From: an uncultured Acidimicrobiales bacterium
Lineage (GTDB): Bacteria; Actinomycetota; Acidimicrobiia; Acidimicrobiales; SZUA-35
Length of the DNA stretch: 64,000 bases
Assembly: GCA_963793385.1 (NCBI GenBank)
Contig: CAWCAF010000035.1
Location: 54,322-118,321 of the forward strand
Direction of reading: 5' to 3'
Part shown: one piece after another, positions 4-25,088 of the stretch
How the letters are laid out: every line of letters starts with the position of its first letter
How positions within the stretch are numbered: position 1 is the stretch's first letter
Notes under the pieces: model-generated
The model's input: only the letters and a program-made list of their open reading frames with translations
What the model was told of the DNA's origin: nothing
Databases searched by the model: none
Program-made: the position numbers and the translations under genes

Positions 4-1551
4 ATGGACAGCCAACGCTTCTCCCTCTACGGGAACACGATCACTGCCGCACAGGATCGTAAGGCGCTCGAGTGGCAGGCGATGTTCCGCAAGCAGTTCG
101 ACTACGACCCGAACGAGCGGTACGAACTGAGCGTGCACGACAACGCCCAGCTCGGCGACGTGCTCGGAATACGGGATATCCGGCGGGACTCCGAAGGGGA
201 TCCGATCGATCGTGACGCCGGTGTCGTGATCTCGACGATCCGCATGGGGTACGGCCACTACCGAATTGCGATGGCCGGAGCCTCCGCGGCGCGAGCGATG
301 GGACACACGCCCTACTGGCTCGATCTGCTCGCCATCCCTGGCATCACCCAGGATGCGATCAACTGGTGGAACACCAACTACAGCAAGTACTCCCGGGTAT
401 CACAGCGGAGCGCTCTCTTCGACAAGTACGTCTGGGAGTCGGTGACGTCGGGCGACAGGACACTCCCGGGGTTGAACTGGCTGCTGAACAATCAGGCGAT
501 GGGCTGGCCGTGGCGGTTCCTCAAGGCCAACGCCCGGGACTACCGCAAGAGCGAATTGTTCGCCAACCTGCATCGCGCCATGCCCTCCGACATGCCGATC
601 CTCACCGCCCACATGTGGAACTGCATGGGGGCCGTCGCCGGAGGCATGACGAACGTCGTCGACATGATGTTCGACAATTGGCCGATGGCGTTCCAGTTGA
701 CCGAGGGCGCAACCCACGCCGTCCAGTCGCCGTCGGGCTACTACGGCTTCCGGATCATGAATCAGTTCGACGAGGACGACCAGATCCTGAATCCGACACC
801 GGCTGATGCGATCGAGTACGTGGGCCATCACGTCGACCACGAGTTGGTGGAGAACATCGAGGTCGATTGTGCGGCTCGGATGGACCGGATGCGAAAGGGT
901 GAGCCGCGTCGTTTCGTGCTGACGATGGGCGGCGCTGGAGCCCAACGCGAGCTCTTCAAGGCGATCATCGACCACAGCCGGCCGATGATCGAGCGCAATG
1001 AGCTGACACTGTTCGTCAATCTCGGCGATCACGCTGACAACTGGGACTGGCTACGGGCCGAACTGGGATCGGCGGCGTCATCGGTGCATACCCATCTCAC
1101 CTGGGACGACGCTCGTGGATTCGCCGACAGCATCCGGGATGGGGAGGCTCGGGGCCTGCACGTCTTCCTGTTCGACAACACCTTCCACGGCGTCTACGCC
1201 ACCAACTACCTGATGCGCGTCAGTGACGTGTTGATCACCAAGCCGTCGGAGTTGGCGTTCTACCCGATCCCGAAGATCTTCAACGCGCGGGTGGGCGCAC
1301 ACGAGGCATGGGGTGCGATTCGCAGTGCCGAGCTCGGTGACGGAACGATCGAGACACGGACCATCCCACGCACGTTGCAAGCGATCGACCTGATGACCCG
1401 CGAGACGGATCTTCTCGAGCTGTTCTGTGATTCGATCGTGAAGAACAAACAGATCGGGATCTACGACGGCGCCTACAAGTGCGTTGCCCTCGCAACCGGC
1501 TCGACATGGGAACGCTCGCCCAACGGAAACATCGTCGACCGTGGCGCCTGA
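4..1551 (+). CDS. GT-B-like glycosyltransferase-family protein (MGDG-synthase/GT28-like C-terminal half); function unknown
   Basis: Intact 515-aa ORF. The C-terminal half (FVLTMGGAGAQRELFKAI ... VSDVLITKPSELAFYPIPKIF) resembles the nucleotide-sugar-binding half of GT28/MGDG-synthase-type enzymes. The N-terminal half was not recognised. Confidence 0.4.
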   Translation: MDSQRFSLYGNTITAAQDRKALEWQAMFRKQFDYDPNERYELSVHDNAQLGDVLGIRDIRRDSEGDPIDRDAGVVISTIRMGYGHYRIAMAGASAARAMGHTPYWLDLLAIPGITQDAINWWNTNYSKYSRVSQRSALFDKYVWESVTSGDRTLPGLNWLLNNQAMGWPWRFLKANARDYRKSELFANLHRAMPSDMPILTAHMWNCMGAVAGGMTNVVDMMFDNWPMAFQLTEGATHAVQSPSGYYGFRIMNQFDEDDQILNPTPADAIEYVGHHVDHELVENIEVDCAARMDRMRKGEPRRFVLTMGGAGAQRELFKAIIDHSRPMIERNELTLFVNLGDHADNWDWLRAELGSAASSVHTHLTWDDARGFADSIRDGEARGLHVFLFDNTFHGVYATNYLMRVSDVLITKPSELAFYPIPKIFNARVGAHEAWGAIRSAELGDGTIETRTIPRTLQAIDLMTRETDLLELFCDSIVKNKQIGIYDGAYKCVALATGSTWERSPNGNIVDRGA

Positions 1552-2791: not shown

Positions 2792-3810
2792 ATGCCCACA
2801 CAGCACAAACGCCACCTCGTGGTCGACGGCTCCAACATCGCAACGGAGGGTCGGACGACGCCCAGCCTCGCCCAACTGGAGGAGGCGGTTGCCGCTGTCG
2901 CGCAACAGGGATTCGATCCGATCACGGTGATCGTCGATGCGACGTTCCCTCGCAGGATCGATCAGTCGGAACTCGATGAGTTCGAGCAGAGGATCCTCGA
3001 TGGATCGCTCGTGACGCCACCGGCCGGGGTTGTCGGTAGAGGCGATGCGTTCATCCTCCAGGTTGCGGCTCAGGTGAATGCGATCGTCCTCTCCAACGAT
3101 TCGTTCCAGGAATTCCACGGCGAACACGAATGGTTGCTCGACGAGGACGGTCGGCTCCTCGGAGGAAAGCCGGTACCGAACGTCGGTTGGGTCTTCGCCA
3201 GGCGAGGACCGGTGCGCGGCCCCAAGAGCCGACAGTCGATTCGCGAGGCCAAGGACGCCAAGGAACCAGCCGGCAAGAAGCCACCTCAGAAGAAGGCTGC
3301 GGCATCCTCACCGTCAGACACGTCCAAGCGGGAAACGCAAGCGCGGCGGTCGAGACAAGAAGAAGGCGACCCAGACACCGACTGGCGAGCCCACGCTGCG
3401 CAGCTGAGCCCGACTCGGCACGACGGTCCACACCAAGATCCAAGGAATCCGCTCACCTCAACGACGTCGCCGAGTTCCTCACGTTCGTGAGAGAACACTC
3501 GATCGGCGACACCGTCGAAGGTGCGGTCGAGCGATTCTCCAGTCACGGTTGCTACTTACGGGTGGCGACCGCCCAGTGTTATCTGCCAATCAAGGCGATG
3601 GGGGATCCACCGCCGAACAAGGCCAGGGACCGAGTGTCCCGCGGCGACATTGTTCGGGCCAAGGTCGAGTCCCTCGACGCCCAACGACGAGGGATCAACG
3701 TTTCGCTGGTCAGCGTGACCTCTCGGGCAGATCGCAGCGACCAGAAACACAAGCCGCCGACGTCAAAGGACGCGGCGATCAGCAACACGCCCCGTAGGAG
3801 CGAATCAACC
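2792..3810 (+). CDS. NYN/Zc3h12a-like ribonuclease domain plus S1 RNA-binding domain protein (frameshifted linker)
   Basis: The N-terminus ([27 protein letters not shown]) is NYN/PIN-like. After a basic linker that changes frame, an S1-like domain follows ([43 protein letters not shown]). There is no stop before the K/A-rich ORF in the same frame. Confidence 0.55.
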
Positions 3811-8573: not shown

Positions 8574-8852
8574 TCAGTCCTCGGCGGGCCCGAACGGTTC
8601 GTCGGCCAGGACGTAGCAGTCCTCGTGATAGTGCTCCACCCGCTCCCAGACGCCTTTTGTGTAGACGTTGCAGATCACCTGAACGTCACGGTGACGGGCC
8701 CGGAACTTCACCCGATCTCCGCAATGCTCGCACTCGGTCATCGATCCGGCCTCGATCAGCCGTGTCACTGCTCGCGACTTCCACCTCTGCGTCTTGGGCT
8801 TGGCAGCGGCCTTCTTCTTGGTTCTGGACGTGGACGCCACCTTCGTAGCCAT
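8574..8852 (-). CDS. Small conserved Cys/His-containing protein, divergent from nucS
   Basis: A 92-aa segment starts at an internal ATG of a 334-aa ORF: a basic N-terminus, then CEHCGDRVKF..HYHEDC. The remainder of that long ORF is antisense to nucS. Confidence 0.5.
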   Translation of the reverse strand: MATKVASTSRTKKKAAAKPKTQRWKSRAVTRLIEAGSMTECEHCGDRVKFRARHRDVQVICNVYTKGVWERVEHYHEDCYVLADEPFGPAED

Positions 8853-8930
8853 GTGGTTCTCATCGGCACCGGACTCTCCTCCTTGAGAATCCACCCGGCG
8901 CCAGTCGCTCGCCACGGATAGAGTGCGCCG

Positions 8931-9590
8931 GTGCGATTGGTGGTTGCAGTGTGCACCGTGACCTACGACGGTCGACTCACCTCGCGGCTGGAGCGGGCCA
9001 GAAGGCTCCTGATGGTCAAGGCTGACGGCTGCGTCGCAGTACACGCCGACGGTGGTGCCTACAAGCCGCTGAACTGGATGAACGCCCCCAACACCATCAG
9101 CATGACCGATGAGGGTTGGCGGGTCGCCAACGACAAGGGCGAGGCGCTCGTGATAGAGCTCCACGCCGTCGAATCCGACATCACCATCGAACTCGGCGTG
9201 GACCCGGGGCTCCAGAAGGACGGGGTCGAGAACCATCTCCAGGAACTCCTCGCCGAACAACCGGAGGAGATCGAACACGGCCTGCAATTGATTCGCCGCG
9301 AACACCGGACCGAGATCGGTCCGGTCGATCTGCTCTGCCGGGACTCCGACGGGATGACCGTCGCGGTCGAGGTGAAACGTCGAGGTGAAATCGATGGTGT
9401 GGAACAGCTGTCCCGCTATCTGGAGTTCCTGAACGCCCAACCCGACCTGGCACCGGTGAGGGGTGTGTTCGCAGCTCAGTCGATCAAGCCGCAAGCAAAA
9501 GTGCTGGCCGGCTACCGAGACATCGGATGTGTCGAAGTCGACTACGACCAGCTCCGAGGGCTCGAAAAGCCACAACAAACACTCTTCTGA
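8931..9590 (+). CDS. nucS: Endonuclease NucS / EndoMS (mismatch-specific)
   Basis: Intact 219 aa and collinear with mycobacterial NucS ([51 protein letters not shown]). Confidence 0.9.
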
Positions 9591-9608
9591 CGTCCACCGT
9601 CACGATCC
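9381..9608 (+). repeat. Left copy of the perfect 228-bp direct repeat (last ~210 nt of nucS plus 18 nt downstream)
   Basis: Base-for-base identical to 18495..18722 by manual alignment. The sequences diverge immediately after ...cacgatcc. Confidence 0.9.
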
Positions 9609-10010: not shown

Positions 10011-10958
10011 ATGTTGATCCCTGAGCCATCCAATTCACAACCTCTGTCCGTCGCCCTTGTCGGCGGAGAAGCCGCCGGAACACAGACGCTGAAGCGTCTG
10101 GTCTCCCTCGAAGTGAAGGTTGCGTTCGTCTGCGCGTCCGCCTCTGATTCATCGTCGCTGGTCGAGGTTGCCAGATCACACAACGTGCCTGTGCTGGATT
10201 CTTCCGCTCTTCGGTCGGGCTTGGCGACCCAAAGCATCGCTGACCACGACGTTGATGTGCTCCTGAACATCCACTCGCTCCAGCTACTGCCGGAAGACCT
10301 TCTCGTTGGCCCCAAGATCGGCAGCTTCAATCTGCATCCTGGCCCTCTTCCTTCCTACGGCGGTCTCGGTGCACCGAGTTGGGCGATCTACAATGGCGAA
10401 TCGCGCCACGCAGTGACGCTGCACTGGATGACTGCAAAGCTCGATGCCGGCGATATCGCGTACGAACGCTGGTTCGAGTTAGACGACAAAGCGACCGGAT
10501 TTTCAGTGAGCACTCAATGCGCCAAGCTCGGACTCGAACTGGTCAGCGAGCTCATTCGACAAGCGGCAATCGACCCTGAGTCAATTCCGAGAACGCCCCA
10601 GGGTCTCGGCGAGCGCCGCCTGTACCGCCGCGATCAGATCCCTGGCGATGGGAAGATCGACTGGCGGCAATCGGCCCGGTTGATCAATCGACTGGTGAGA
10701 GCGTCGTCCTATCGACCCTTCCCGTCCCCCTGGGGTGATCCCCGGACCTTGCTCGGCGACCGTCCGATAGACCTTGTGGCAACCACGTTGACCGACGAAC
10801 ACGACAGCGGCCAGCGGGCCGGCACCGTCATCGCTTTGGCCGACGGCAACCTTGCCGTGGTGACCGGCGAAGGTGTCCTCCGAATTGACCGGGTGATTCT
10901 GGATGGTCGAGTGGTGGCCGCATCTGAGGTGCTTTCGTCTGGCGACATCCTCAGTTAG
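10011..10958 (+). CDS. Fmt/ArnA-N-like formyltransferase
   Basis: Intact 315 aa. The formyltransferase core (VDVLLNIHSLQLLPEDLL..FNLHPGPLPSYGGLGAPSWAI..LDAGDI) is followed by an Fmt-like C-terminal beta-barrel region. Confidence 0.75.
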   Translation: MLIPEPSNSQPLSVALVGGEAAGTQTLKRLVSLEVKVAFVCASASDSSSLVEVARSHNVPVLDSSALRSGLATQSIADHDVDVLLNIHSLQLLPEDLLVGPKIGSFNLHPGPLPSYGGLGAPSWAIYNGESRHAVTLHWMTAKLDAGDIAYERWFELDDKATGFSVSTQCAKLGLELVSELIRQAAIDPESIPRTPQGLGERRLYRRDQIPGDGKIDWRQSARLINRLVRASSYRPFPSPWGDPRTLLGDRPIDLVATTLTDEHDSGQRAGTVIALADGNLAVVTGEGVLRIDRVILDGRVVAASEVLSSGDILS

Positions 10959-11028
10959 TTCGCACGATCCAGTCGCGCCGTTCACTCGTCGCCAAACACG
11001 CCCATCCATGCTTCGCCGTCGAATCGAC

Positions 11029-12357
11029 TCAAAAGGACGTGCTACCTAGAAGAACCCGAAGCAGTTCGGGATCCGGAGAGTGCACAAGCGGGTGTGTGGA
11101 ATGTCGCCGAAGCAGAATGCCTCGACGGCCCACAACCTTGCTCAAATGGTGCTCCCAACGCCCGTCTACAAGCGCTGCGCCGTTGTCATACGCATCGTGG
11201 AGAAGATGCGAGAAGACGTCCTCGAGATAGGGATCCTTGCCACCAATCTGCAGGACCCGCGAGATGCTTCCACGTCCGAGCAGGTAGAGGTACCACCCGC
11301 AGATCACACCCTCGTCGTCTCGAAAGAGGGCGCCCCTCAGCTCTCCCTTCCCCACCCGGCCCAGCGCGTCGAACTCCCACTTGAGGAAGTCCTCGTCATA
11401 TGCCGGCTTCAGGACCGTGTCTCCCGAAAGCGTCGAGATCGCTTCAACAAGCGTACGTGGCACAAGCGTCTCGGCAACAAGTGTCGAGCGTGCAGGCAAC
11501 AACCAGCGCGACCCTTTGCTCAACACTCTGTCGGCCAGTATCGCCAGCCCTTTCGACCGTTCGCCCAAGGCACGTTTTTCGAGAGAATAGCTATGGGCGA
11601 AGGTCATCGGGCGCATGACGACGGTCCATCGCCGGGCCCGCTCGTCCACCCGTTGACCTCCCAACCCGGTCCACATCTCACGACCCAGATCGGTGGCGCC
11701 ATCGGTGATACTGAAATCCTGAGGACCAGCGAGGTAGCGCTCCATCAGAAAGGCTCCGATACCGAACTTCCGAGATTCAGGGTCGACAATCAGTGGACCC
11801 GAACAGCCCATGCGGACTTGTGATCCCTTGTACTCGAACAACCGCGTATTCGAACCGATGAAGCCGATCAGCCTTCCGGTCTGGTCACTTGCGATCAACG
11901 CTGGAATCCCGGGATCGGCCTGAGGATGATCAAAGAAGAGTTCGGAAAGGAAATCCGCCAAAACATCGGCGGAACCTGACCTCTTGGTCACCTTCACCAG
12001 CAGCGCCGCCACCTCAGGAAGGTCGTCACGCTTCATAGGCTTTATCTCACCACCACCGGGCAGCGGGAACGCGGCCAGCGGTTCAGTGGGCGAGTCCGGC
12101 TCGACCGACTCGTCACGCACCGACACGAGACGAGCCAAACTGACGGCCGTGCGCAGGTCATCGAACTCCAGCGAATGTAATGGGATCTCGACGCCGAACG
12201 CCGACTCCAGTTCTGCCATCACCTCGATCAATCCGAGCGAATCAAGGGTTCCCGAGTCGAGTAGATCGACATCTGCCGAGGAGATGTCCACGCCCAGCTT
12301 GGCCTCGAGGATACCGATGACCCGGCCGACGGTCTCGGAGTTCGCGGGATCAGACAT
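11029..12357 (-). CDS. Carrier protein (phosphopantetheine attachment) fused to a GNAT-like acyltransferase domain
   Basis: Intact 442 aa. The N-terminal ACP motif is LLDSGTLDSLGLIEVMAELE. The C-terminal ~330 aa have GNAT-like segments (RLIGFIGS..; GIGAFLMERYL). The start overlaps the stop of the adenylation gene by 8 nt. Confidence 0.65.
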   Translation of the reverse strand: MSDPANSETVGRVIGILEAKLGVDISSADVDLLDSGTLDSLGLIEVMAELESAFGVEIPLHSLEFDDLRTAVSLARLVSVRDESVEPDSPTEPLAAFPLPGGGEIKPMKRDDLPEVAALLVKVTKRSGSADVLADFLSELFFDHPQADPGIPALIASDQTGRLIGFIGSNTRLFEYKGSQVRMGCSGPLIVDPESRKFGIGAFLMERYLAGPQDFSITDGATDLGREMWTGLGGQRVDERARRWTVVMRPMTFAHSYSLEKRALGERSKGLAILADRVLSKGSRWLLPARSTLVAETLVPRTLVEAISTLSGDTVLKPAYDEDFLKWEFDALGRVGKGELRGALFRDDEGVICGWYLYLLGRGSISRVLQIGGKDPYLEDVFSHLLHDAYDNGAALVDGRWEHHLSKVVGRRGILLRRHSTHPLVHSPDPELLRVLLGSTSF

Positions 12358-13927
12358 CGGCTTCCTCGAAAGACTCGCGAATGGCCCGTCGGTCTATCTT
12401 GCCGTTCGCGTTCTTGGGGAGCGTCTCGTAGGACCGCCAACGGACCGGAATCATGTATCGCGGGAGCGTCGACGCCAGCTGTTTGCGAAGTGTCAGGACT
12501 GCTTCGTCGAACTCAAGAGCGACGCCGGTATAGGCACACGCCACTACCTTGCCAGCGTCGGAGTCGTCGACACCGACGACTGCACACTCCTTCACCATCT
12601 CGATCGCATCCATGGCGGCCTCGATTTCGCCCAGCTCGATCCGGTAGCCCCTGCTCTTGATTTGTGAGTCTGACCGACCGAGCAGATAGAGCTGACCGTC
12701 AGACCCGACGCGGGCGAGGTCACCGGTGCGGTACAACCGATTCCCCCCGCTGTCGAGAAAGAAGGCGGCGTTGGTCTTCTCTGTGTCCCGCCAGTAGCCG
12801 GCGGACAGGCCAACACCCCCGATGACGAGATTGCCAACGTCGCCGTCGGGCGTCTGAGCGTTGTCGTCGTCGAGGATCTGCAGGGTCTCACCGGGACAGG
12901 CGACGCCGATTGGAATGGGACTCGTCGGGCTGGCGGGCGGTTCGTCAAGTGTGTAGAAGCTTGATGCGATGGTGGCCTCGGTCGGGCCGTACAGATTGGT
13001 GAATCGGACTCGCGGCAGCCGCTCCATCAGGTATTGAAGAGTCGGCGTCGGCATCATCTCACCGCACCAGAGAAGGCGGGTGAGAGATGGAAACTCGGCT
13101 CGGTCCATGGCACCGGACCGCATCATGAGCGTGAGGATGGAGGGCACGCTGAACCATTGGTTGAGTTCGCTATTCCGTATGAAGTCGACCAGCTTGCCCG
13201 GCAGCAGGTTGAGAGTGGATGGCACAAGATGCAGTTCCGCACCAGCGCCGATCGTTGAGTAAATGTCGAACGTGGAGAGATCGAAATGGAGCGGCGGATG
13301 ACCTGAGACGCGCTCTCCTGGGCAGGTACCGAAATAGTTGGTCGCCCAGTCAACGAAGTGACAGACGTTTTCGTGACTGATGACCACACCTTTCGGATCG
13401 CCTGTTGACCCGGACGTGTAGAGCAGGTGCGCAGGATCGGAAGGGGCGGCGGGGCTTGTCACCTGATCCGGATCGCTTCGAACGACATCGTCGTGCTCGA
13501 ACTCGAGGGGTAGGCCGACGACACCGGGTTCAAGCGCCCCGATACGAAGCGACCCATCGACACCTGGTTGGTTGAGTACGTCAGCCAACAACCCGGCACC
13601 GGCCGAAGTGGTCAACACGAAGGCCGGATCGGAGGATGCGAAGATCCGGGCGAGCCTTGGCGCTGGAGCGGAGATGTCGACGGGAACGTAAACGGCCCCG
13701 GCCTTGAGTACCGCGAGAAACGCCGTGATCGCGCGAGGGCTCTTCGGTGAGAAGACCACTACTCGATCATTGGAGCGGCACCCAGCTGCAACCAACGTTC
13801 GAGCCAGGGAATTACTCTGCTGGTCGAGCTCCTCGTAGCTCAGCACAACATCGCCCGCCACGATCGCCCGAGCCGAAGGCTGCTGCTTGGCCGTATGAAG
13901 GAACCGGTCCTGGATGAGGCCTGTCAT
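12350..13927 (-). CDS. Stand-alone amino-acid adenylation enzyme (ANL superfamily, DltA-like size)
   Basis: Intact 525 aa with A-domain core motifs (LLYTSGSTGDPKGV, NLYGPTEAT, YRTGDLAR, GRSDSQIKSRGYRIELGEIE, LPKNANGKIDR). An ATGA overlap links it to the upstream LLM gene. Confidence 0.85.
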   Translation of the reverse strand: MTGLIQDRFLHTAKQQPSARAIVAGDVVLSYEELDQQSNSLARTLVAAGCRSNDRVVVFSPKSPRAITAFLAVLKAGAVYVPVDISAPAPRLARIFASSDPAFVLTTSAGAGLLADVLNQPGVDGSLRIGALEPGVVGLPLEFEHDDVVRSDPDQVTSPAAPSDPAHLLYTSGSTGDPKGVVISHENVCHFVDWATNYFGTCPGERVSGHPPLHFDLSTFDIYSTIGAGAELHLVPSTLNLLPGKLVDFIRNSELNQWFSVPSILTLMMRSGAMDRAEFPSLTRLLWCGEMMPTPTLQYLMERLPRVRFTNLYGPTEATIASSFYTLDEPPASPTSPIPIGVACPGETLQILDDDNAQTPDGDVGNLVIGGVGLSAGYWRDTEKTNAAFFLDSGGNRLYRTGDLARVGSDGQLYLLGRSDSQIKSRGYRIELGEIEAAMDAIEMVKECAVVGVDDSDAGKVVACAYTGVALEFDEAVLTLRKQLASTLPRYMIPVRWRSYETLPKNANGKIDRRAIRESFEEADV

Positions 13928-14997
13928 CGGGACTCCGAGGCAAATTCCGTCGAGGCGTCGGCGGCCATGTTTATGGCCCTGGTAGCGTGCTCAATGTCAT
14001 TCATGTCGACGGGAATATCCAGAATGAAAGTTCCGTAGCCGGCGGTGATATATCGGCCGATTTCGGGCACTACCTCGTCGAAGCTTCCGACGAGATACGG
14101 ACAAAAGGTGTTGTAGTTACGGAAGGGGTGGAGCCAATAGACACCCGCATCACCAGCTTCACTCAGTTGCTGGTGCCACTGGGAGTCGGATGTTTTCATG
14201 GCCATGGCGTGGGCCATTTGGCCCTTGCGATCCTCAGGGAATCGACCGAAAGCGATCTCCCACGCGTCTTCGGAACGATCACGTGCAATGATCCCGATTC
14301 TGATCCCGCAAGGGACCGCAGCGCCGTTCATATCGTCCTCGACACCTGGCGGACCGGGATATCGGATGGCCGTCGCGCCGATGCCCTCGGCGGCGTGCAT
14401 GCCAGCGTCTGACGAGCCTGAAATCAGGAACGTTGTCCGAATGCCGTCGGGCATCGGAGGCTTCAACGACAGTCCTTCGAGCTGAAAGAAGTGACCGTCC
14501 TGTGTGATGGATTCGCCGTCGAGCAGCCGCCTCATAATCGTTGCATACTCCTCGGCCCGGGCGTAGCGGTCGTCGTGCGGCGTGGTGTCGCCCAGCGCTT
14601 TCAGATCGTTTCGAAAACCTCCAGCCACGATGTTCACATCAGTGGCCCGACCGTGCATCAACGCCAAGCTGGCGATCTTCTTGGCCGCTGCGTAGGGGTG
14701 CATGTAGGCCGACTGAACGGCGACGAGGGGCCGTAGTTTCGAAGTGAAGCCCATCACCGAGTGAGCGATCAACCATGGATCGATGAGACTGTTATCGGTA
14801 TATATGAGGGTCCCGACGCACCCGGCTGCCTCACTCCAAGTCGCCGCCTCATGAACCATCGTGAGGTAGTCGGAACCTTCACTAGGTGCGTCCGACGACT
14901 TCGGACACGTCGAATAGATCTGTATTGTCAAGCCCGTTCCCACGCTTTCTGTAGAGGCCACCCTGTCGATTTTAGCATGGACCCCATCAACTACCAA
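13924..14997 (-). CDS. Luciferase-like (LLM-class) flavin-dependent monooxygenase
   Basis: Intact ORF with LLM-like segments (IYSTCP.., LRPLVAVQSAYMHPY, NIVAGGF). The true start is probably the internal TTG at 14931 (MTIQIYSTCP), by comparison with the paralogous fragment at 18256. Confidence 0.7.
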   Translation of the reverse strand: MVVDGVHAKIDRVASTESVGTGLTIQIYSTCPKSSDAPSEGSDYLTMVHEAATWSEAAGCVGTLIYTDNSLIDPWLIAHSVMGFTSKLRPLVAVQSAYMHPYAAAKKIASLALMHGRATDVNIVAGGFRNDLKALGDTTPHDDRYARAEEYATIMRRLLDGESITQDGHFFQLEGLSLKPPMPDGIRTTFLISGSSDAGMHAAEGIGATAIRYPGPPGVEDDMNGAAVPCGIRIGIIARDRSEDAWEIAFGRFPEDRKGQMAHAMAMKTSDSQWHQQLSEAGDAGVYWLHPFRNYNTFCPYLVGSFDEVVPEIGRYITAGYGTFILDIPVDMNDIEHATRAINMAADASTEFASESR

Positions 14998-15588
14998 GGT
15001 GCAGGGTCATCAGATAATGGGTTGCACGTAGGGCATCTTACCACCCGTTGAACAGGCGCGAATGGTTACAAAAGTCTCTCCAACCAAGTCGACCTTATGA
15101 CCGTGATTAAGGTCTGCGGTTGGAAGCACACGGACGTCTCGCTTCGTGGAGCCGGCGTTCGCACTCACAGCTCTTCGCCTGGCATACCTGACACTCAGCG
15201 ACGCCTGCCGACTGGTCATTTCGACCGGGTCACGTGCACACGGCCGCGCTCTCGATCAAAGCGGCAGTTCTCATCGGCTTGTGCCGAGTCGGCGCTCGAA
15301 ACACAGCTGCTGATGTCTTCCGACAGCATGCTCCGACGCAACCGCAGCTGCATTCGTCTTGATTGGGTGATCGTGTGGACCACGGGAACCTCTCCCCGGA
15401 TCAGAGGCCGGTGTCGCTTCGGGTCTTTACGCAAGCGTCCAGCACACTGGTCGGCCAAGACGCCCGGTGTGGCCGCTTTGTCGACAGCCATGCGTCGACA
15501 GAGTTGGCTGCAAGGGTCCACACCGACCCCTCCCAGTGCGCTCCGATGACGTTCCGAAGACCTCCGGAACGAGCGTGATGCGGGCCCG

Positions 15589-16605
15589 CTAGAAGTCTCT
15601 ACAAACAAGAAGTTGGTCATATTTGGCAGCCTTCACATTTGATTCAATCTCACGCCAACTCTCCGAAGGACTCTTTCCATCGGACCAAGCCAATAGCATT
15701 GCCGGTACATTTGCGCCTGCTACATGAGTGAACGGATACCCACCACCGAACCGTGGATTCATCTCCAGTACGTAGACACTCTCGTGAGTGACGAAGACAT
15801 CACAGTCGAGGTTGCCCACATGCGCAAGCTTCCGCCCAATCGTCTCGCCAAGCCTTTGAAGTCGATCATCTTCAACCGTCATCGCCTGACTTGTCTCTCC
15901 TGAACGCATGCCAATCTTACGTTTCGCAAAGGTCGACACGTAGCGACCGTTCAGATCATTGATGATGTCAAGACCATATTCTTGCCCGGGCAATTTCTCC
16001 TGTATGAGGACCGATCGTTGGTGATCAGTAGCGCTCACCTCTGAGAGGATTGTTCGTTTGAGCTTCTTCCTGAGGAGTCGATAGGCCAACTCCAGCTCCT
16101 CGCAGTCCTGTGGGAACTCGATGCCAATCGAGGCAGTCCCCCATCGGGGTTTGACCACCAACGGAAAAGCAACTTCCCCTTGGGACAACGCCCTACGCGC
16201 CTCTACCACACTCAGATACGTCTTGGGGAAGGGAAGTCTCAATTCCTTCAGAAACTCAACCGTCGCCAACTTGTCAAAGCTGGCCATAACCACATCTGGT
16301 GACGACACGACAGGTATCGTGCCAATTTCGAGGAATCGATCGCGCTCCCGGGCCAATGGCAGCAACTCCAGGTCGTTCAGCGGGATCAGCAAGCGAACCT
16401 GGTGCTCCTGACAAATGGCTATTAGGCGATCAATGTAGCTCGTATCGCCGATGGCAGGAACGATGAAGGCCCTGTCTGCGACCTGTAAAGCCGGCGCATC
16501 AGCGGAAACATCGGCGGCGTATACTTCTCCCTTTTCTGGCAATGCAGACCGAAAGTATTCCACAAGGTAATTGCGGCGACCTGCACAGGTTAGGAGTACG
16601 TTCAT
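15589..16605 (-). CDS. ATP-grasp ligase
   Basis: Intact 338 aa. The sequence MNVLLTCAGRRNYLVEYF.. then ..FPLVVKPRWGTASIGI..LIQEKLPGQEYGLDI..VYVLEMNPRFGGGYP is typical of the ATP-grasp fold. G+C is markedly low. Confidence 0.75.
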   Translation of the reverse strand: MNVLLTCAGRRNYLVEYFRSALPEKGEVYAADVSADAPALQVADRAFIVPAIGDTSYIDRLIAICQEHQVRLLIPLNDLELLPLARERDRFLEIGTIPVVSSPDVVMASFDKLATVEFLKELRLPFPKTYLSVVEARRALSQGEVAFPLVVKPRWGTASIGIEFPQDCEELELAYRLLRKKLKRTILSEVSATDHQRSVLIQEKLPGQEYGLDIINDLNGRYVSTFAKRKIGMRSGETSQAMTVEDDRLQRLGETIGRKLAHVGNLDCDVFVTHESVYVLEMNPRFGGGYPFTHVAGANVPAMLLAWSDGKSPSESWREIESNVKAAKYDQLLVCRDF

Positions 16606-16674
16606 AATGAGAGAAAACTGCTCTTAGCTTCTTGCAACTGGCTTCCCGATGGCTCTCATGCGGTAGAGGCGGCG

Positions 16675-17917
16675 CTAAATAAGATACGTCGCGAACACGT
16701 CCGCAAGTTCTTCCTGTCGCTTGACGACTTCGAATTCGTCTAGTGTTGATCTATAGGCGAGTATAGGTGGGCACGGATGAATGAACGGCGGCTTCATGAC
16801 CGTGTTATAGGCACCAACATTATCAAAGATCAAGTAGTCATTCAATGTTAGAGGACCGGAGTAGCCGCTGTGAAGACAGTCATGCTCCATGCAGGTAGTG
16901 CCGACAATATCAATGAGGTCACCGGATCCGGTCGCTCCCGATCCGGCGTGTGACGAAACCACCCTCATTGGGAGGTTCCGTTTGTGTAGCGTTGGCTTCA
17001 CGTTGTGAATGCTGCCCGAGGAAAGAGCTATTGTTCGCGAACGTACGGTCTTTATATCAACTATTTTGGCTACGAATTTCATCGTATTTGCTGTAATAGC
17101 TGTACCAGGTTCGAGGATCAGCTCAGGTGCCAATTGATCAGGAAACTGGTCACGAAACAAATGAGCAATGGTTGTCGCATAGTCTTGAAAAGTCGGTATT
17201 GGTTGAGTGAATTGCTCTCGCAACGCAAATGGCACGTCGCTGAAAAATCCTCCACCCAGATTGATGAATTGAGGTAGCGTATCCGCAAAGTGATCAGAGG
17301 CCAGAGCTAACATCTTGTTCGCCCTCAAAGCATACGAATCGAGGCTCTTGTGCGAGGTTGAGAAATGGCAATGCAACCCACCGACGGTGCAGTTGTCCAG
17401 ACGACGGAGTCGGTCAAGCGCATCCTGAAAGTCGTCTCCATCGACGTCAAATCCAAATCGAGAAATATCATCGGAGGCAAGCTCAAAGTTGCAACGGACG
17501 CCAACTGTCATCTGATGCTCAGGTGATCGTTTGGCTATTGCCTCGACAATCGCTACTTCAGAGCATGAGTCCAGGTTGACTATCGAGCCAGCCAGGAGCG
17601 CCTTTTCAATATCTGGCTCGCGCTTGTAGGGACCATTGAAGATGATTCGGGATGGTATGACCCCAATACGCAGGGCCAGATCATATTCCATGACGGAGAC
17701 AACTTCAGCATAGCCACCCATAGCATTGACAGATTTGCAGAGTCTTGGCGTATAGTTCGTCTTATACGAGTACCGCGATGTTGCTCTTGGGGTATATTGA
17801 TTTGAAGGCCCCTAAGAACTCTTGATAGTTGGACTCAAACAGGTCGAGGTCGAGTAGATAGAATGCATCCCCATACGACTCTTCCAGCCCATGAAGTGAA
17901 TGCCAGGAAATACTCAT
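16675..17917 (-). CDS. PLP-dependent decarboxylase, Orn/DAP/Arg decarboxylase family (fold type III); one frameshift near 17775
   Basis: The 348-aa ORF has HCHFSTSHKS, NLGGGF and EPGTAITA. The missing N-terminus (MSISWHSL..DAFYLLDL ... YSYKTNYTPRL) lies upstream in two frames. Confidence 0.7.
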
Positions 17918-18397: not shown

Positions 18398-18467
18398 GCA
18401 CCAGGACGTCGAGATCAGCTGTCGGCCTTCGAAGGCCTTCGTCCGCCTCGAACGGGCAACCGACGCA

Positions 18468-18704
18468 ATGACCACCGCGTTCGAGGTGAAACGGCGAGGT
18501 GAAATCGATGGTGTGGAACAGCTGTCCCGCTATCTGGAGTTCCTGAACGCCCAACCCGACCTGGCACCGGTGAGGGGTGTGTTCGCAGCTCAGTCGATCA
18601 AGCCGCAAGCAAAAGTGCTGGCCGGCTACCGAGACATCGGATGTGTCGAAGTCGACTACGACCAGCTCCGAGGGCTCGAAAAGCCACAACAAACACTCTT
18701 CTGA
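18468..18704 (+). pseudogene. Duplicated 3' part of nucS (78 codons)
   Basis: [27 protein letters not shown]...QQTLF is identical to the NucS C-terminus from RRGE onward. Confidence 0.9.
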
Positions 18705-18722
18705 CGTCCACCGTCACGATCC
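18495..18722 (+). repeat. Right copy of the perfect 228-bp direct repeat
   Basis: Identical to 9381..9608. Confidence 0.9.
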
Positions 18723-23432: not shown

Positions 23433-25088
23433 GTGAACGGTTGGGATTTTGCCACGGTCTGGGAGTCGGTGGCGGCGGTCCAACCCGATGCACCCGCCCT
23501 CGATCCACGGTGACTTCGTGCGGACCTGGACGGAGACTTGGACCGCAGAGCCAACGGACTCGCACGCTTCCTACTGTCGCCGTGGCTGTGCCCATCAGGC
23601 CTCGATCGGGTTCTACCTCTACAACGGGCCGGAGTACACCGAGCTCTTCCTGGCCTGCTCCAAGGCGTCGCTCGTGCACGTCAACACGAACTATCGCTAC
23701 GGGGTCGCCGAGCTCACGTATCTATGGGACAACGCCGACGCCGAGGTGATCGTGTTCCACGGTTCGTTCAGCGAGACGGCGGCCGAGGTCAGACCCGAGA
23801 TCCCGGCATCCACACCTGGCTCTGGATCGACGACGGCTCAGGTCCCTGTCCCGGGTGGGCGACACCGTACGAGGAGGCCGTCGCCACGCCCACGACCGAG
23901 CACCGTCGTGCTCGCCCGAGGGACGTTCGGGCGATGATCTGGTCCTGCTCTACACGGGCGGCACGACCGGAATGCCCAAAGGGGTGATGTGGCGTCAGGA
24001 TGACCTCCTGATCGTCACCGACGCCAAGAACAAGGTGCCACTGCCGGTCGAACCCGATGTCGGTGCCGACGGACACTCCGAGGCCGCCGCCGAACGCGTG
24101 GCACAGCGGCTCCTGGACCGCGCAGCATTCCGGCGTGCCCGTTGATGCACGGCACCGGGCTCTTCAATGCGCTGAACACCATGAGTCTCGGCGGGACCAC
24201 TCATCACGCTGACCGCTCACCGGCTCGACATCGCAGAGCTGTTCGACACCGTCGAACGTCACCGGGTCGAAGAGCATCTTCATCGTCGGTGACGCCTTCG
24301 CACGGCCGATGCTCGACGGCGCTCGACGCCGAACCCGATCGCTGGGACATCAGCTCGCTCCGGGTCCTCATCTCCTCGGGTGTGATGTGGTCAGCGGACT
24401 CCAAGGCGGGTCTGATGCATCACAACGACAGGATGGTGTGCGTCGACACTTACGGAAGCTCCGAGGCGATCGGTATCGGCTCATCGGTGACCTCCAAGGA
24501 TGCATCGGCAGGACCGCGTCGTTCTCGTTGAGCAAGAGGTCAGCGGTGATCACCGACGACGGCCGCCTGGTCGAAGCCGGCAGCGGAGAGGTCGGTCGTG
24601 TCGGCATCGCCGGCCGCGTCCCGCTCGGATACCACAAGGACCCCGAGAAGACCGCCACCACCTTTCCCACCGTCGACGGGATTCGGTACTCGGTTCCCGG
24701 CGACTTCGCCACGGTTGAGGCCGACGGTTCGATCACGCTGCTCGGCCGGGGTTCGGTCTGCATCAACACCGGCGGCGAGAAGGTGTTTCCCGAGGAGGTC
24801 GAAGAGTCGCTCAAGGGCTGTTGTCGGGGTGCGGGATGCGATCGTGGTCGGTGTGCCCGACGATGCGCTTCGGCCAGCGGGTGGCCGCGGTCGTGGCCGG
24901 TGAGCCGGCGTCGGTGTCGGAGGCGGATGCGATCGCCCACGTCAAGGACCAGCTCGCCGACTACAAAGCCCCCCGGCACGTCATCACCGTTCCTTCGTCT
25001 GGAACGAGCGGCCAACGGCAAGGTCGACTACAGCCGTTGGACCGCCTTCGCCGAGCGTGCGGTTTCGAACGAACCGAACGAGACCTAG
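23433..25088 (+). CDS. Acyl-CoA synthetase / fatty-acid-CoA ligase (FadD-like); at least nine frame changes
   Basis: ANL motifs (LLYTGGTTGMPKGVMW, YGSSE, GDFATVEADGSITLLGRGSVCINTGGEKVFPEEVE, ANGKVDY) are scattered over all three frames. Confidence 0.75.

Follow-up and report, generated by a model that had tools for sequence, protein, structure and literature searches.

Do six neighbouring genes whose products recall the butirosin (Btr) pathway constitute a single pathway of that kind? The question is raised by an insertion of 8.9 kb with low guanine-plus-cytosine (GC) content, situated at the 3' end of nucS on a contig of an uncultured Acidimicrobiales bacterium (CAWCAF010000035.1, assembly GCA_963793385.1) and contained in the 64-kb stretch of DNA analysed here, referred to below as the window. 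The island encodes a formyltransferase, an acyl carrier protein (ACP) fused to an acyltransferase domain that we call X, a stand-alone amino-acid adenylation (A) domain, a luciferase-like monooxygenase (LLM), an ATP-grasp ligase and a pyridoxal phosphate (PLP)-dependent decarboxylase. A preliminary description of this DNA recognized among them the exact enzyme set that builds the carrier-tethered side chain of butirosin. The comparisons presented here lead to a different reading, to which we assign a probability of about 0.55: a horizontally acquired insertion at the nucS 3' end would carry two independent units for the tailoring of sugars or glycans. Unit 1 (10011-14997) groups the formyltransferase (Fmt)-like protein, the LLM, the DltA-like A domain and the ACP-X fusion, and unit 2 (15589-17917) the ATP-grasp ligase and the decarboxylase. 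Units 1 and 2 occur together in none of the 47 other loci examined, and judging from these gene neighbourhoods unit 2 appears to be independent of unit 1.

A carrier-protein module with a predicted tandem-GNAT transferase

Unit 1 comprises the following genes.

10011..10958, plus strand: Fmt/ArnA-like N10-formyl-tetrahydrofolate formyltransferase, 315 aa (Pfam Formyl_trans_N and Formyl_trans_C)
11029..12357, minus strand: ACP-X fusion, 442 aa (DltC-like carrier followed by the X acyltransferase)
12350..13927, minus strand: stand-alone DltA/PltF-like amino-acid adenylation enzyme, 525 aa (TIGR01733)
13924..14997, minus strand: SsuD-like LLM, at most 357 aa (Bac_luciferase, 89 bits)

Each of the six island proteins was recovered with predicted domains (Pfam, NCBIfam) where the preliminary description had placed it; only the decarboxylase departs from that description, its frame being broken. 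The reported coupling of the LLM, A-domain and ACP-X genes is exact on both counts: the stop codon of the first and the start codon of the second share a 4-nt ATGA overlap, and the stop of the A-domain gene overlaps the ACP-X start by 8 nt (ATGTCTGA). The Fmt-like gene is convergent with this operon.

The carrier domain of the fusion (PP-binding, 40.8 bits, aa 12-78) presents Ser40 within an LDSLG motif and finds its best NCBIfam match in DltC, at 35 bits against a cutoff of 68 (NF003464). Beyond it, the ~340 residues of X (aa ~100-442) have zero Pfam matches. An AlphaFold (AF2) model of X built from a 54-sequence alignment reached a predicted local distance difference test score (pLDDT) of 94.3 and a predicted template-modelling score (pTM) of 0.90, superseding an earlier model from a 4-sequence alignment (pLDDT 57.5). 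The best structural matches retrieved by Foldseek are N-myristoyltransferases (NMT; E 5e-17, TM 0.53-0.59, probability 1.0), and a sequence profile of X compared with the PDB reaches NMT at 2e-5 and the AAC(2') GNATs at 5e-3. On the basis of the model confidence and of these structure and profile matches, X is predicted to be an NMT-like tandem-GNAT acyltransferase, which bears out the GNAT-like fusion partner proposed earlier. By inspection, RKFGIG in X fits GNAT motif A (R/Q-x-x-G-x-G/A). Like NMT and other tandem-GNAT acyltransferases (MshD, FemX-type), X would comprise two GNAT halves per chain, the N-terminal one bearing the R-x-x-G-x-G pantetheine-binding motif; at ~11% identity and TM ~0.55 it is a relative of NMT in fold only, and its donor would be an acyl-S-ACP, fused or adjacent, instead of an acyl-CoA or aminoacyl-tRNA.

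Full-length ACP-X has just five word-sharing homologues among 5.8 billion proteins. The X profile collects 2,333 representative clusters at E<=1e-3 and 1,231 at E<=1e-30, whose members are mostly stand-alone proteins of 355-390 aa, with few ACP-X fusions; their source labels read 'hypothetical protein' and rarely 'GNAT superfamily', and some members match Acetyltransf_9.

The stand-alone A-domain enzyme announced by the preliminary description scores above the curated TIGR01733 cutoff (369 bits vs 317), and its nearest solved structures are the PltF-type 6o6e (285 bits) and DltA 3e7w (260 bits). Its specificity code, at positions hand-derived from the core motifs, reads DLFFLCLIAK; Asp235 and Lys517 are kept, and the pattern DLFF[LIVM]CLIAK fits 12 of 13 orthologues that are ~50% identical overall, locus L027 having Y at the third position. 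The retention of these two residues and the conservation of the code point to one conserved alpha-amino acid as substrate. A Cys-type substrate was considered and set aside, since the best agreement with Stachelhaus codes was 6/10, too weak for an assignment.

The LLM gene probably starts at 14943-14931. Its product is most similar among NCBIfam models to SsuD and SfnG, far under their cutoffs (98.8 bits vs 518 for the SsuD equivalog), and is presumed to be FMNH2-dependent. The Fmt-like formyltransferase, also correctly recognized earlier, combines Formyl_trans_N and Formyl_trans_C with an intact catalytic triad (N107/H109/D145), features that it shares with sugar N-formyltransferases (the ArnA domain, the GDP-perosamine enzyme) and with Met-tRNA formyltransferase. 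It falls under every NCBIfam equivalog cutoff (ArnA-FT 98.6 vs 777 bits; fmt 82.5 vs 201.5 bits) and is equidistant from both groups in comparisons with the PDB (64-71 bits: ArnA 71, GDP-perosamine N-formyltransferase 70, Met-tRNA enzyme 64).

Unit 1 is reminiscent of the DltABCD system, in which a stand-alone A domain works with a small carrier, the proteins most similar to those of the island, to decorate a cell-envelope polymer with an amino acid. The island enzymes nevertheless stay below the Dlt cutoffs (346 bits vs 560 for the A domain with TIGR01734; the carrier score is given above), and their A-domain code differs from the DltA code. DltB (MBOAT) and DltD are not found in the island, and the LLM and formyltransferase are additional here. 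As the transferase of unit 1 would be a soluble tandem GNAT, transfer would be cytoplasmic, unlike in Dlt.

How widespread is this arrangement? A scan of genome contigs, one genome per species, with an X-family profile of 9 sequences yielded 33 loci, nearly all in metagenome-assembled genomes (MAGs) of Actinomycetota, plus two in Pseudomonadales; the hosts include Gaiellales, Solirubrobacterales, Egibacteraceae, Pseudonocardia and Acidimicrobiales. When the window proteins were compared by tblastn with the first 38 X-family loci, an orthologous A domain was found in 21 (44-75% identity), the LLM in 17, directly upstream of A (44-56%), and the Fmt-like protein in 14, adjoining the module (36-48%); 11 loci possess all three. 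The customary order, (Fmt)-LLM-A-ACP-X, recurs at 45-55% identity, with the ACP open reading frame (ORF) immediately before X, and a 39th locus (L047) also has LLM, A and ACP adjoining X. Gene fusions join A to ACP (L006, L028) and ACP to X (the window, L001, and P0058, P0061, P0090 and P0092 in the representative library), and by this sequence evidence A, ACP and X are tied together as one set.

Locus L002 encodes a Flavin_Reduct protein directly upstream of the LLM, in keeping with a two-component monooxygenase that uses FMNH2. The closest relative of the window A/ACP-X pair (75% and 54% identity), found in L001 (GCA_037968895.1, 3890-4942), has no LLM; a 2OG-Fe(II) oxygenase stands beside it instead, suggesting a conserved need to oxygenate the residue held on the carrier. 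The BtrV-like reductase said to be missing is indeed absent from the island; the only flavin reductase of the window is an FMN_red-family gene far outside it, which could nonetheless supply FMNH2 to the LLM.

X is also encountered in a second context (L007, L013, L016 and L022, also L011 and L015), next to a different AMP-ligase (~30% identity) and an ACP. A class I/II aminotransferase (Aminotran_1_2) accompanies it in L007, L013, L016 and L022, and a small asparagine-synthase-like protein in L007, L011, L013 and L015. This context suggests that X may serve several carrier-based modules as their general exit transferase. In L002, L013, L015, L016, L018, L020 and L030 two X paralogues lie abreast, often with an Acetyltransf_6 (FemAB-like) protein, a hint of sequential or alternative transfers.

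The acceptor can be approached through the genes that surround X. By neighbour clustering and Pfam, at least one polysaccharide or sugar-modification gene accompanies X in 17 of the 27 X-family loci that span 10 kb or more, counting Wzy_C, Wzx, Bac_transf, CpsB, tyrosine-kinase-like, GT2, DegT, epimerase and CE4 deacetylase families; GT4 proteins, AsnB-like enzymes and a carbamoyltransferase are further neighbours. The commonest partner is the CE4 polysaccharide deacetylase, present in 12 of 39 loci, and L047 consists of a compact LLM-A-ACP-X-deacetylase set standing alone amid haem and UvrD genes. The neighbourhoods of ATP-grasp/ACP genes in glycan loci have been noted in the literature (PMC4000134). 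Given these polysaccharide, deacetylase and DegT surroundings, the acceptor of X would be a sugar amine, that of a de-N-acetylated hexosamine or of an amino sugar produced by DegT.

The preliminary description had imagined a variant pathway in which an amino acid is loaded, decarboxylated and hydroxylated on the carrier before transfer. Synteny and fusions support its loading, LLM tailoring and GNAT transfer, with Fmt in the same module, as a plausible sequence for unit 1 only; decarboxylation on the carrier found no support in the comparisons.

The ATP-grasp and decarboxylase pair

Unit 2 contains two genes.

15589..16605, minus strand: ATP-grasp ligase, 338 aa (NF009404 / PylC-like_N family)
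16675..17917, minus strand: fold-III (Orn/DAP-type) PLP decarboxylase, 413 aa if repaired (Orn_Arg_deC_N and Orn_DAP_Arg_deC)

The ATP-grasp ligase is assigned to NF009404 (PRK12767.1-3, 'CPS-like protein') at 443.4 bits against a cutoff of 316, matches PDB 2pn1 at 171 bits and counts over 5,264 homologues at E<=1e-20, with ~60% identity to cyanobacterial and Pseudonocardia proteins. The decarboxylase matches Orn_Arg_deC_N only from profile position 44. A +1 frameshift at 17773-17776, due to a single surplus nucleotide between 17777 and 17772, leads to a stop three codons on, so that residues 1-47 are read in the frame of 17917 and residues 49-410 in that of 17772; the alignment with the L039 decarboxylase, 57% identical, is split at the same place (1-47 / 49-410). 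The motif with the PLP-lysine, YSYKTNY, precedes the first ATG in frame (17721) and is severed from the N-terminus by the frameshift. As sequenced, the gene is probably a pseudogene, unless the extra nucleotide is a sequencing error.

Relatives of the ATP-grasp ligase, two of whose loci came from a scan of metagenome contigs, are surrounded as follows.

L039/L040 (Pseudonocardia MAG): PAP2 - decarboxylase - ATP-grasp - Wzc-like - PglF-like dehydratase - DegT - GT4 - Wzy - Bac_transf
L041 (Nostoc): Bac_transf - PALP enzyme - ATP-grasp - one unannotated gene - DegT - Wzc
L042: GT4 - Bac_transf - GNAT - ATP-grasp - DegT - UDP-Glc dehydrogenase - PglF-like
P0165 contig: ATP-grasp overlapping DegT
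L043: decarboxylase - ATP-grasp alone, with a 4-nt overlap; ABC transporter and MerR regulator alongside

The decarboxylase-ATP-grasp pair thus exists at two independent places, the L039/L040 polysaccharide locus and L043, with 55-62% identity, and the closest homologues of the decarboxylase (55-57% identity) are paired with the ATP-grasp ligase in loci devoid of ACP. The eight ATP-grasp loci contain no ACP, X, LLM or module A domain in any instance. Conversely, within the stretches of DNA compared, an ATP-grasp ligase or decarboxylase of the window type is found in none of the 40 X-family loci.

These distributions bear directly on the Btr comparison. In butirosin biosynthesis the ATP-grasp ligase BtrJ loads Glu on the carrier BtrI and the decarboxylase BtrK acts on the carrier-bound residue (PMC11350588). 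The island has four superfamilies in common with that system, namely ACP, ATP-grasp, fold-III PLP decarboxylase and LLM. The later butirosin steps are hydroxylation by BtrO/V, transfer by BtrH and deprotection by BtrG. Together with the related CtaD/E/F and FlvN/L/O, the Btr enzymes illustrate the logic proposed here for unit 1, in which an amino acid tethered to a carrier is tailored by an LLM-class enzyme and passed to a sugar-type amine.

The parallel does not extend further. The exact Btr set, read as one Btr-like pathway, is not supported: both unit 2 genes are absent from the X-family loci, and the two enzymes sit in settings of sugar-nucleotide and cell-wall modification, as an ACP-free family from amino-sugar loci, an outcome that the preliminary description had itself named as refuting its idea. 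The role of ACP loader given to the ATP-grasp ligase in Btr is likewise not supported here: the ACP gene overlaps the A-domain gene, A-ACP fusions exist, and the ATP-grasp ligase occurs in eight ACP-free loci, so that loading falls to an ATP-grasp enzyme in Btr and would fall to a DltA-like A domain here. Nor is the decarboxylase particularly BtrK-like. Its best solved relative is FslC (115 bits), and BtrK (2j66/7ru7), at 76 bits, is no closer than ordinary diaminopimelate (DAP) decarboxylases (76-84). The transferases differ too, BtrH there and a tandem GNAT here, and Pfam scans show no BtrH-type gene in the window. The preliminary description was right that BtrG-like and aminoglycoside core genes are missing, as judged by Pfam scans of the island and 40 further window ORFs; the island is without BtrG, a BtrV-type reductase, gamma-glutamyl protection and 2-deoxystreptamine genes, and possesses a formyltransferase. 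Homology to the Btr pathway is therefore not supported by these sequence comparisons, and the resemblance appears to hold at the superfamily level only; it would combine convergent logic in unit 1 with a chance juxtaposition with unit 2.

What might unit 2 do instead? FslC is the N-citrylornithine decarboxylase of the FslA/FslC rhizoferrin system, and the window ATP-grasp ligase shares the PylC-like N domain of PylC-type ligases. By analogy, the pairing of the two enzymes suggests a 'ligate, then decarboxylate' sequence, with the differences that the partner is an NIS synthetase in the rhizoferrin system and an ATP-grasp ligase here, and that the setting here is one of amino-sugar and polysaccharide genes.

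The insertion at nucS and its surroundings

The borders of the island and the interval between its units are the following.

8931-9590, plus strand: intact nucS, 219 aa (Pfam NucS_N and NucS_C)
9339..9608, plus strand: left copy of the direct repeat and left island border, the 3' end of intact nucS
14998..15588, no strand: gap of 591 nt between units 1 and 2, no recognisable gene
18453..18722, plus strand: right copy of the direct repeat and right island border, a duplicated nucS 3' fragment
18468-18704, plus strand: nucS C-terminal fragment, 78 aa (Pfam NucS_C, profile positions 47-122)

The preliminary view of these genes as an island is confirmed by the 270-nt direct repeat found on both sides and by the GC content, 0.577 between the repeats vs 0.654 in the flanks. 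The two repeat copies, spaced by 9114 in the repeat search, are 97% identical overall, with ~243 nt identical in the alignment. The nucS repeat and the low GC point to a single, horizontally acquired insertion. Within it, GC is ~0.60 in the Fmt, ACP-X, A and LLM genes, 0.527 in the ATP-grasp gene and 0.488 in the decarboxylase gene. No integrase and no tRNA were found in the island, and promoter and terminator scans and Rfam gave nothing beyond chance level.

The gap between the units was searched for a degraded flavin reductase or other gene remnant, and none was found: its ORFs (15097-15549, 15216-15620 and 15010-15219) have zero Pfam matches, and tblastx against all loci gave only short fragmentary matches near threshold. 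A minus-strand ORF at 8574-9578 (334 aa, high third-position GC), antisense to nucS, was rejected as a high-GC artefact.

The flanks of the island encode an ABC1 kinase, an inositol monophosphatase, a VanW protein and a sigma/anti-sigma pair; further away, the window has genes for methyltransferases, regulators, a haem peroxidase and an FMN reductase. When the ORFs of the island and 40 others of the window were scanned with Pfam, polysaccharide and aminoglycoside genes were not detected in the 64 kb. At 29-64 kb, the Pfam matches of 40 ORFs include one protein of the animal-haem-peroxidase family, one NB-ARC/AAA_22 protein, one DUF4386 protein and the NADPH-dependent FMN reductase. An ORF outside the island (23449-23937, plus strand, 162 aa) matches only positions 32-112 of the AMP-binding profile and could represent part of a gene for an acyl-CoA/AMP ligase. 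Upstream of the island region lie a DUF6937 and DUF6938 protein (4-1551, plus strand) and an NYN-domain (Zc3h12a-like) RNase (2792-3490, plus strand).

Proposed reactions, alternatives and significance

In the two-unit reading, the A domain would adenylate a conserved small alpha-amino acid and load it on Ser40 of the ACP, as the fusions, the synteny and Asp235/Lys517 lead us to infer. The SsuD-like two-component LLM would then oxidize, most likely hydroxylate, the tethered residue, and X would move the acyl group from the pantetheine arm to the amine of a cytoplasmic sugar acceptor, which according to the gene neighbourhoods would most likely be a de-N-acetylated hexosamine or an amino sugar made by DegT. 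The Fmt-like enzyme may N-formylate either the new alpha-amine or a sugar amine. Unit 2 would form a carboxylate-amine amide in an amino-sugar pathway and then remove the alpha-carboxylate, a proposal that concerns the class of reaction; in this island the frameshift would have inactivated it. A precedent for part of this scheme is the tetronate locus of Vibrio cholerae O1 (rfbK-O), in which an ACP, an AMP-ligase and oxidoreductases build the N-acyl group of perosamine. The substrate there is a hydroxy acid and not an alpha-amino acid, and we know of no X-family GNAT or Fmt in that locus.

Several observations weigh against the two-unit reading. Among the long X-family loci, 10 of 27 have no polysaccharide gene among their annotated clusters; genes for a glycosyltransferase, Wzx/Wzy, DegT or a deacetylase are absent from the 64-kb window, so that the acceptor pathway for the island copy is not visible. 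All the context evidence comes from MAG or metagenome contigs, read as sequence. Five of the six genes share one orientation on a single insertion, an arrangement also compatible with a common function. Finally, L046 (GCA_030841465.1, 313-2991) presents the order A C-terminus - ACP - X::ATP-grasp - metallophosphoesterase, in which the A domain is orthologous and the fusion (P0080, 801 aa) joins an X-family tandem GNAT to an ATPgrasp_Ter-type domain, which shows that ATP-grasp ligases can be physically linked with A-ACP-X.

The last two points would favour a composite pathway of all six enzymes, in which A loads, the LLM hydroxylates, X transfers, the ATP-grasp ligase joins a second amino acid or acid through an amide bond, the decarboxylase trims the alpha-carboxylate of this addition and Fmt caps the amine, leading to an N-formyl hydroxylated peptide-like substituent. 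The six genes do share one repeat-bounded insertion, and their enzyme classes match Btr-type logic (PMC11350588). The hint from L046 is weak, its ATP-grasp domain being of a different type, 25% identical to that of the window and absent from other X loci. The mutual exclusion of the two gene sets in the 40 X-family and 8 ATP-grasp loci, the 591-nt gap, the GC step from ~0.60 to ~0.50 between the units and the frameshifted decarboxylase all speak for separate units, and we regard the composite pathway as unlikely. The cassette might alternatively make or modify a small non-polymeric molecule instead of a surface polysaccharide, be it a mycothiol-like glycoside of aminoacyl-glucosamine, an N-acyl amino acid or a metabolite of the hydroxamate type. 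Mycothiol synthesis (MshB/C/D) has such a logic, with deacetylation first, then ligation of an amino acid and finally capping of the nitrogen by a tandem GNAT. The window copy, like L001 and L047, is not part of a polysaccharide locus, and the L043 decarboxylase-ATP-grasp pair stands by itself, with an ABC transporter and a MerR regulator as neighbours. Yet most long X-family loci are classic Wzx/Wzy-type clusters, no non-ribosomal peptide synthetase condensation domain, polyketide synthase or siderophore genes were found nearby, and the island has no transporter; a small product seems to us somewhat more doubtful than the composite pathway.

The frameshift, the lack of acceptor-pathway genes within 64 kb, the missing integrase, the featureless gap and the mosaic GC would also be explained if the cargo were a non-functional, decaying remnant, consisting of fragments of foreign polysaccharide loci brought in by recombination at nucS. 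This is the least probable of the explanations considered, as Fmt, ACP-X, A, LLM and the ATP-grasp ligase are full length with respect to their orthologues, catalytic motifs and translational coupling are intact, and two further assemblies encode A-domain proteins that cluster with this one at 90% identity. A bolder extension of the two-unit reading is speculative, though less remote than these alternatives. X would be the founder of a bacterial class of NMT-like tandem-GNAT transferases not described before, for which a carrier protein serves as aminoacyl donor. Acting alongside the DltA-like ligase, the SsuD-like monooxygenase, the formyltransferase and, in most lineages, a CE4 deacetylase, it would place an oxidized N-formylated amino acid on hexosamines, providing a new route to aminoacylated surface glycans or to a mycothiol-like glycoside in Actinomycetota. 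Here it might in addition be coupled to the ATP-grasp ligase and decarboxylase, as in L046, in a Btr-like logic of building on the carrier and then trimming.

Literature searches found nothing that describes the unit 1 module or the pair of NF009404 ATP-grasp ligase and decarboxylase, and unit 1 would constitute an uncharacterised but recurrent carrier-protein/tandem-GNAT aminoacylation module. For annotation, the case advises caution, as the signature 'ACP + ATP-grasp + PLP decarboxylase + LLM' does not suffice to identify a Btr-like pathway. Should unit 1 work as proposed, it would define an unannotated X family of 2,333 clusters at 50% identity, without Pfam or NCBIfam model, and might offer a tool for joining amino acids to amino sugars. 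For the little-studied Actinomycetota concerned (Thermoleophilia, Acidimicrobiia, Pseudonocardia), it would represent a recurrent five-gene module for carrier-dependent sugar aminoacylation, by which the surface charge and the recognition of cell-envelope glycans would be altered.

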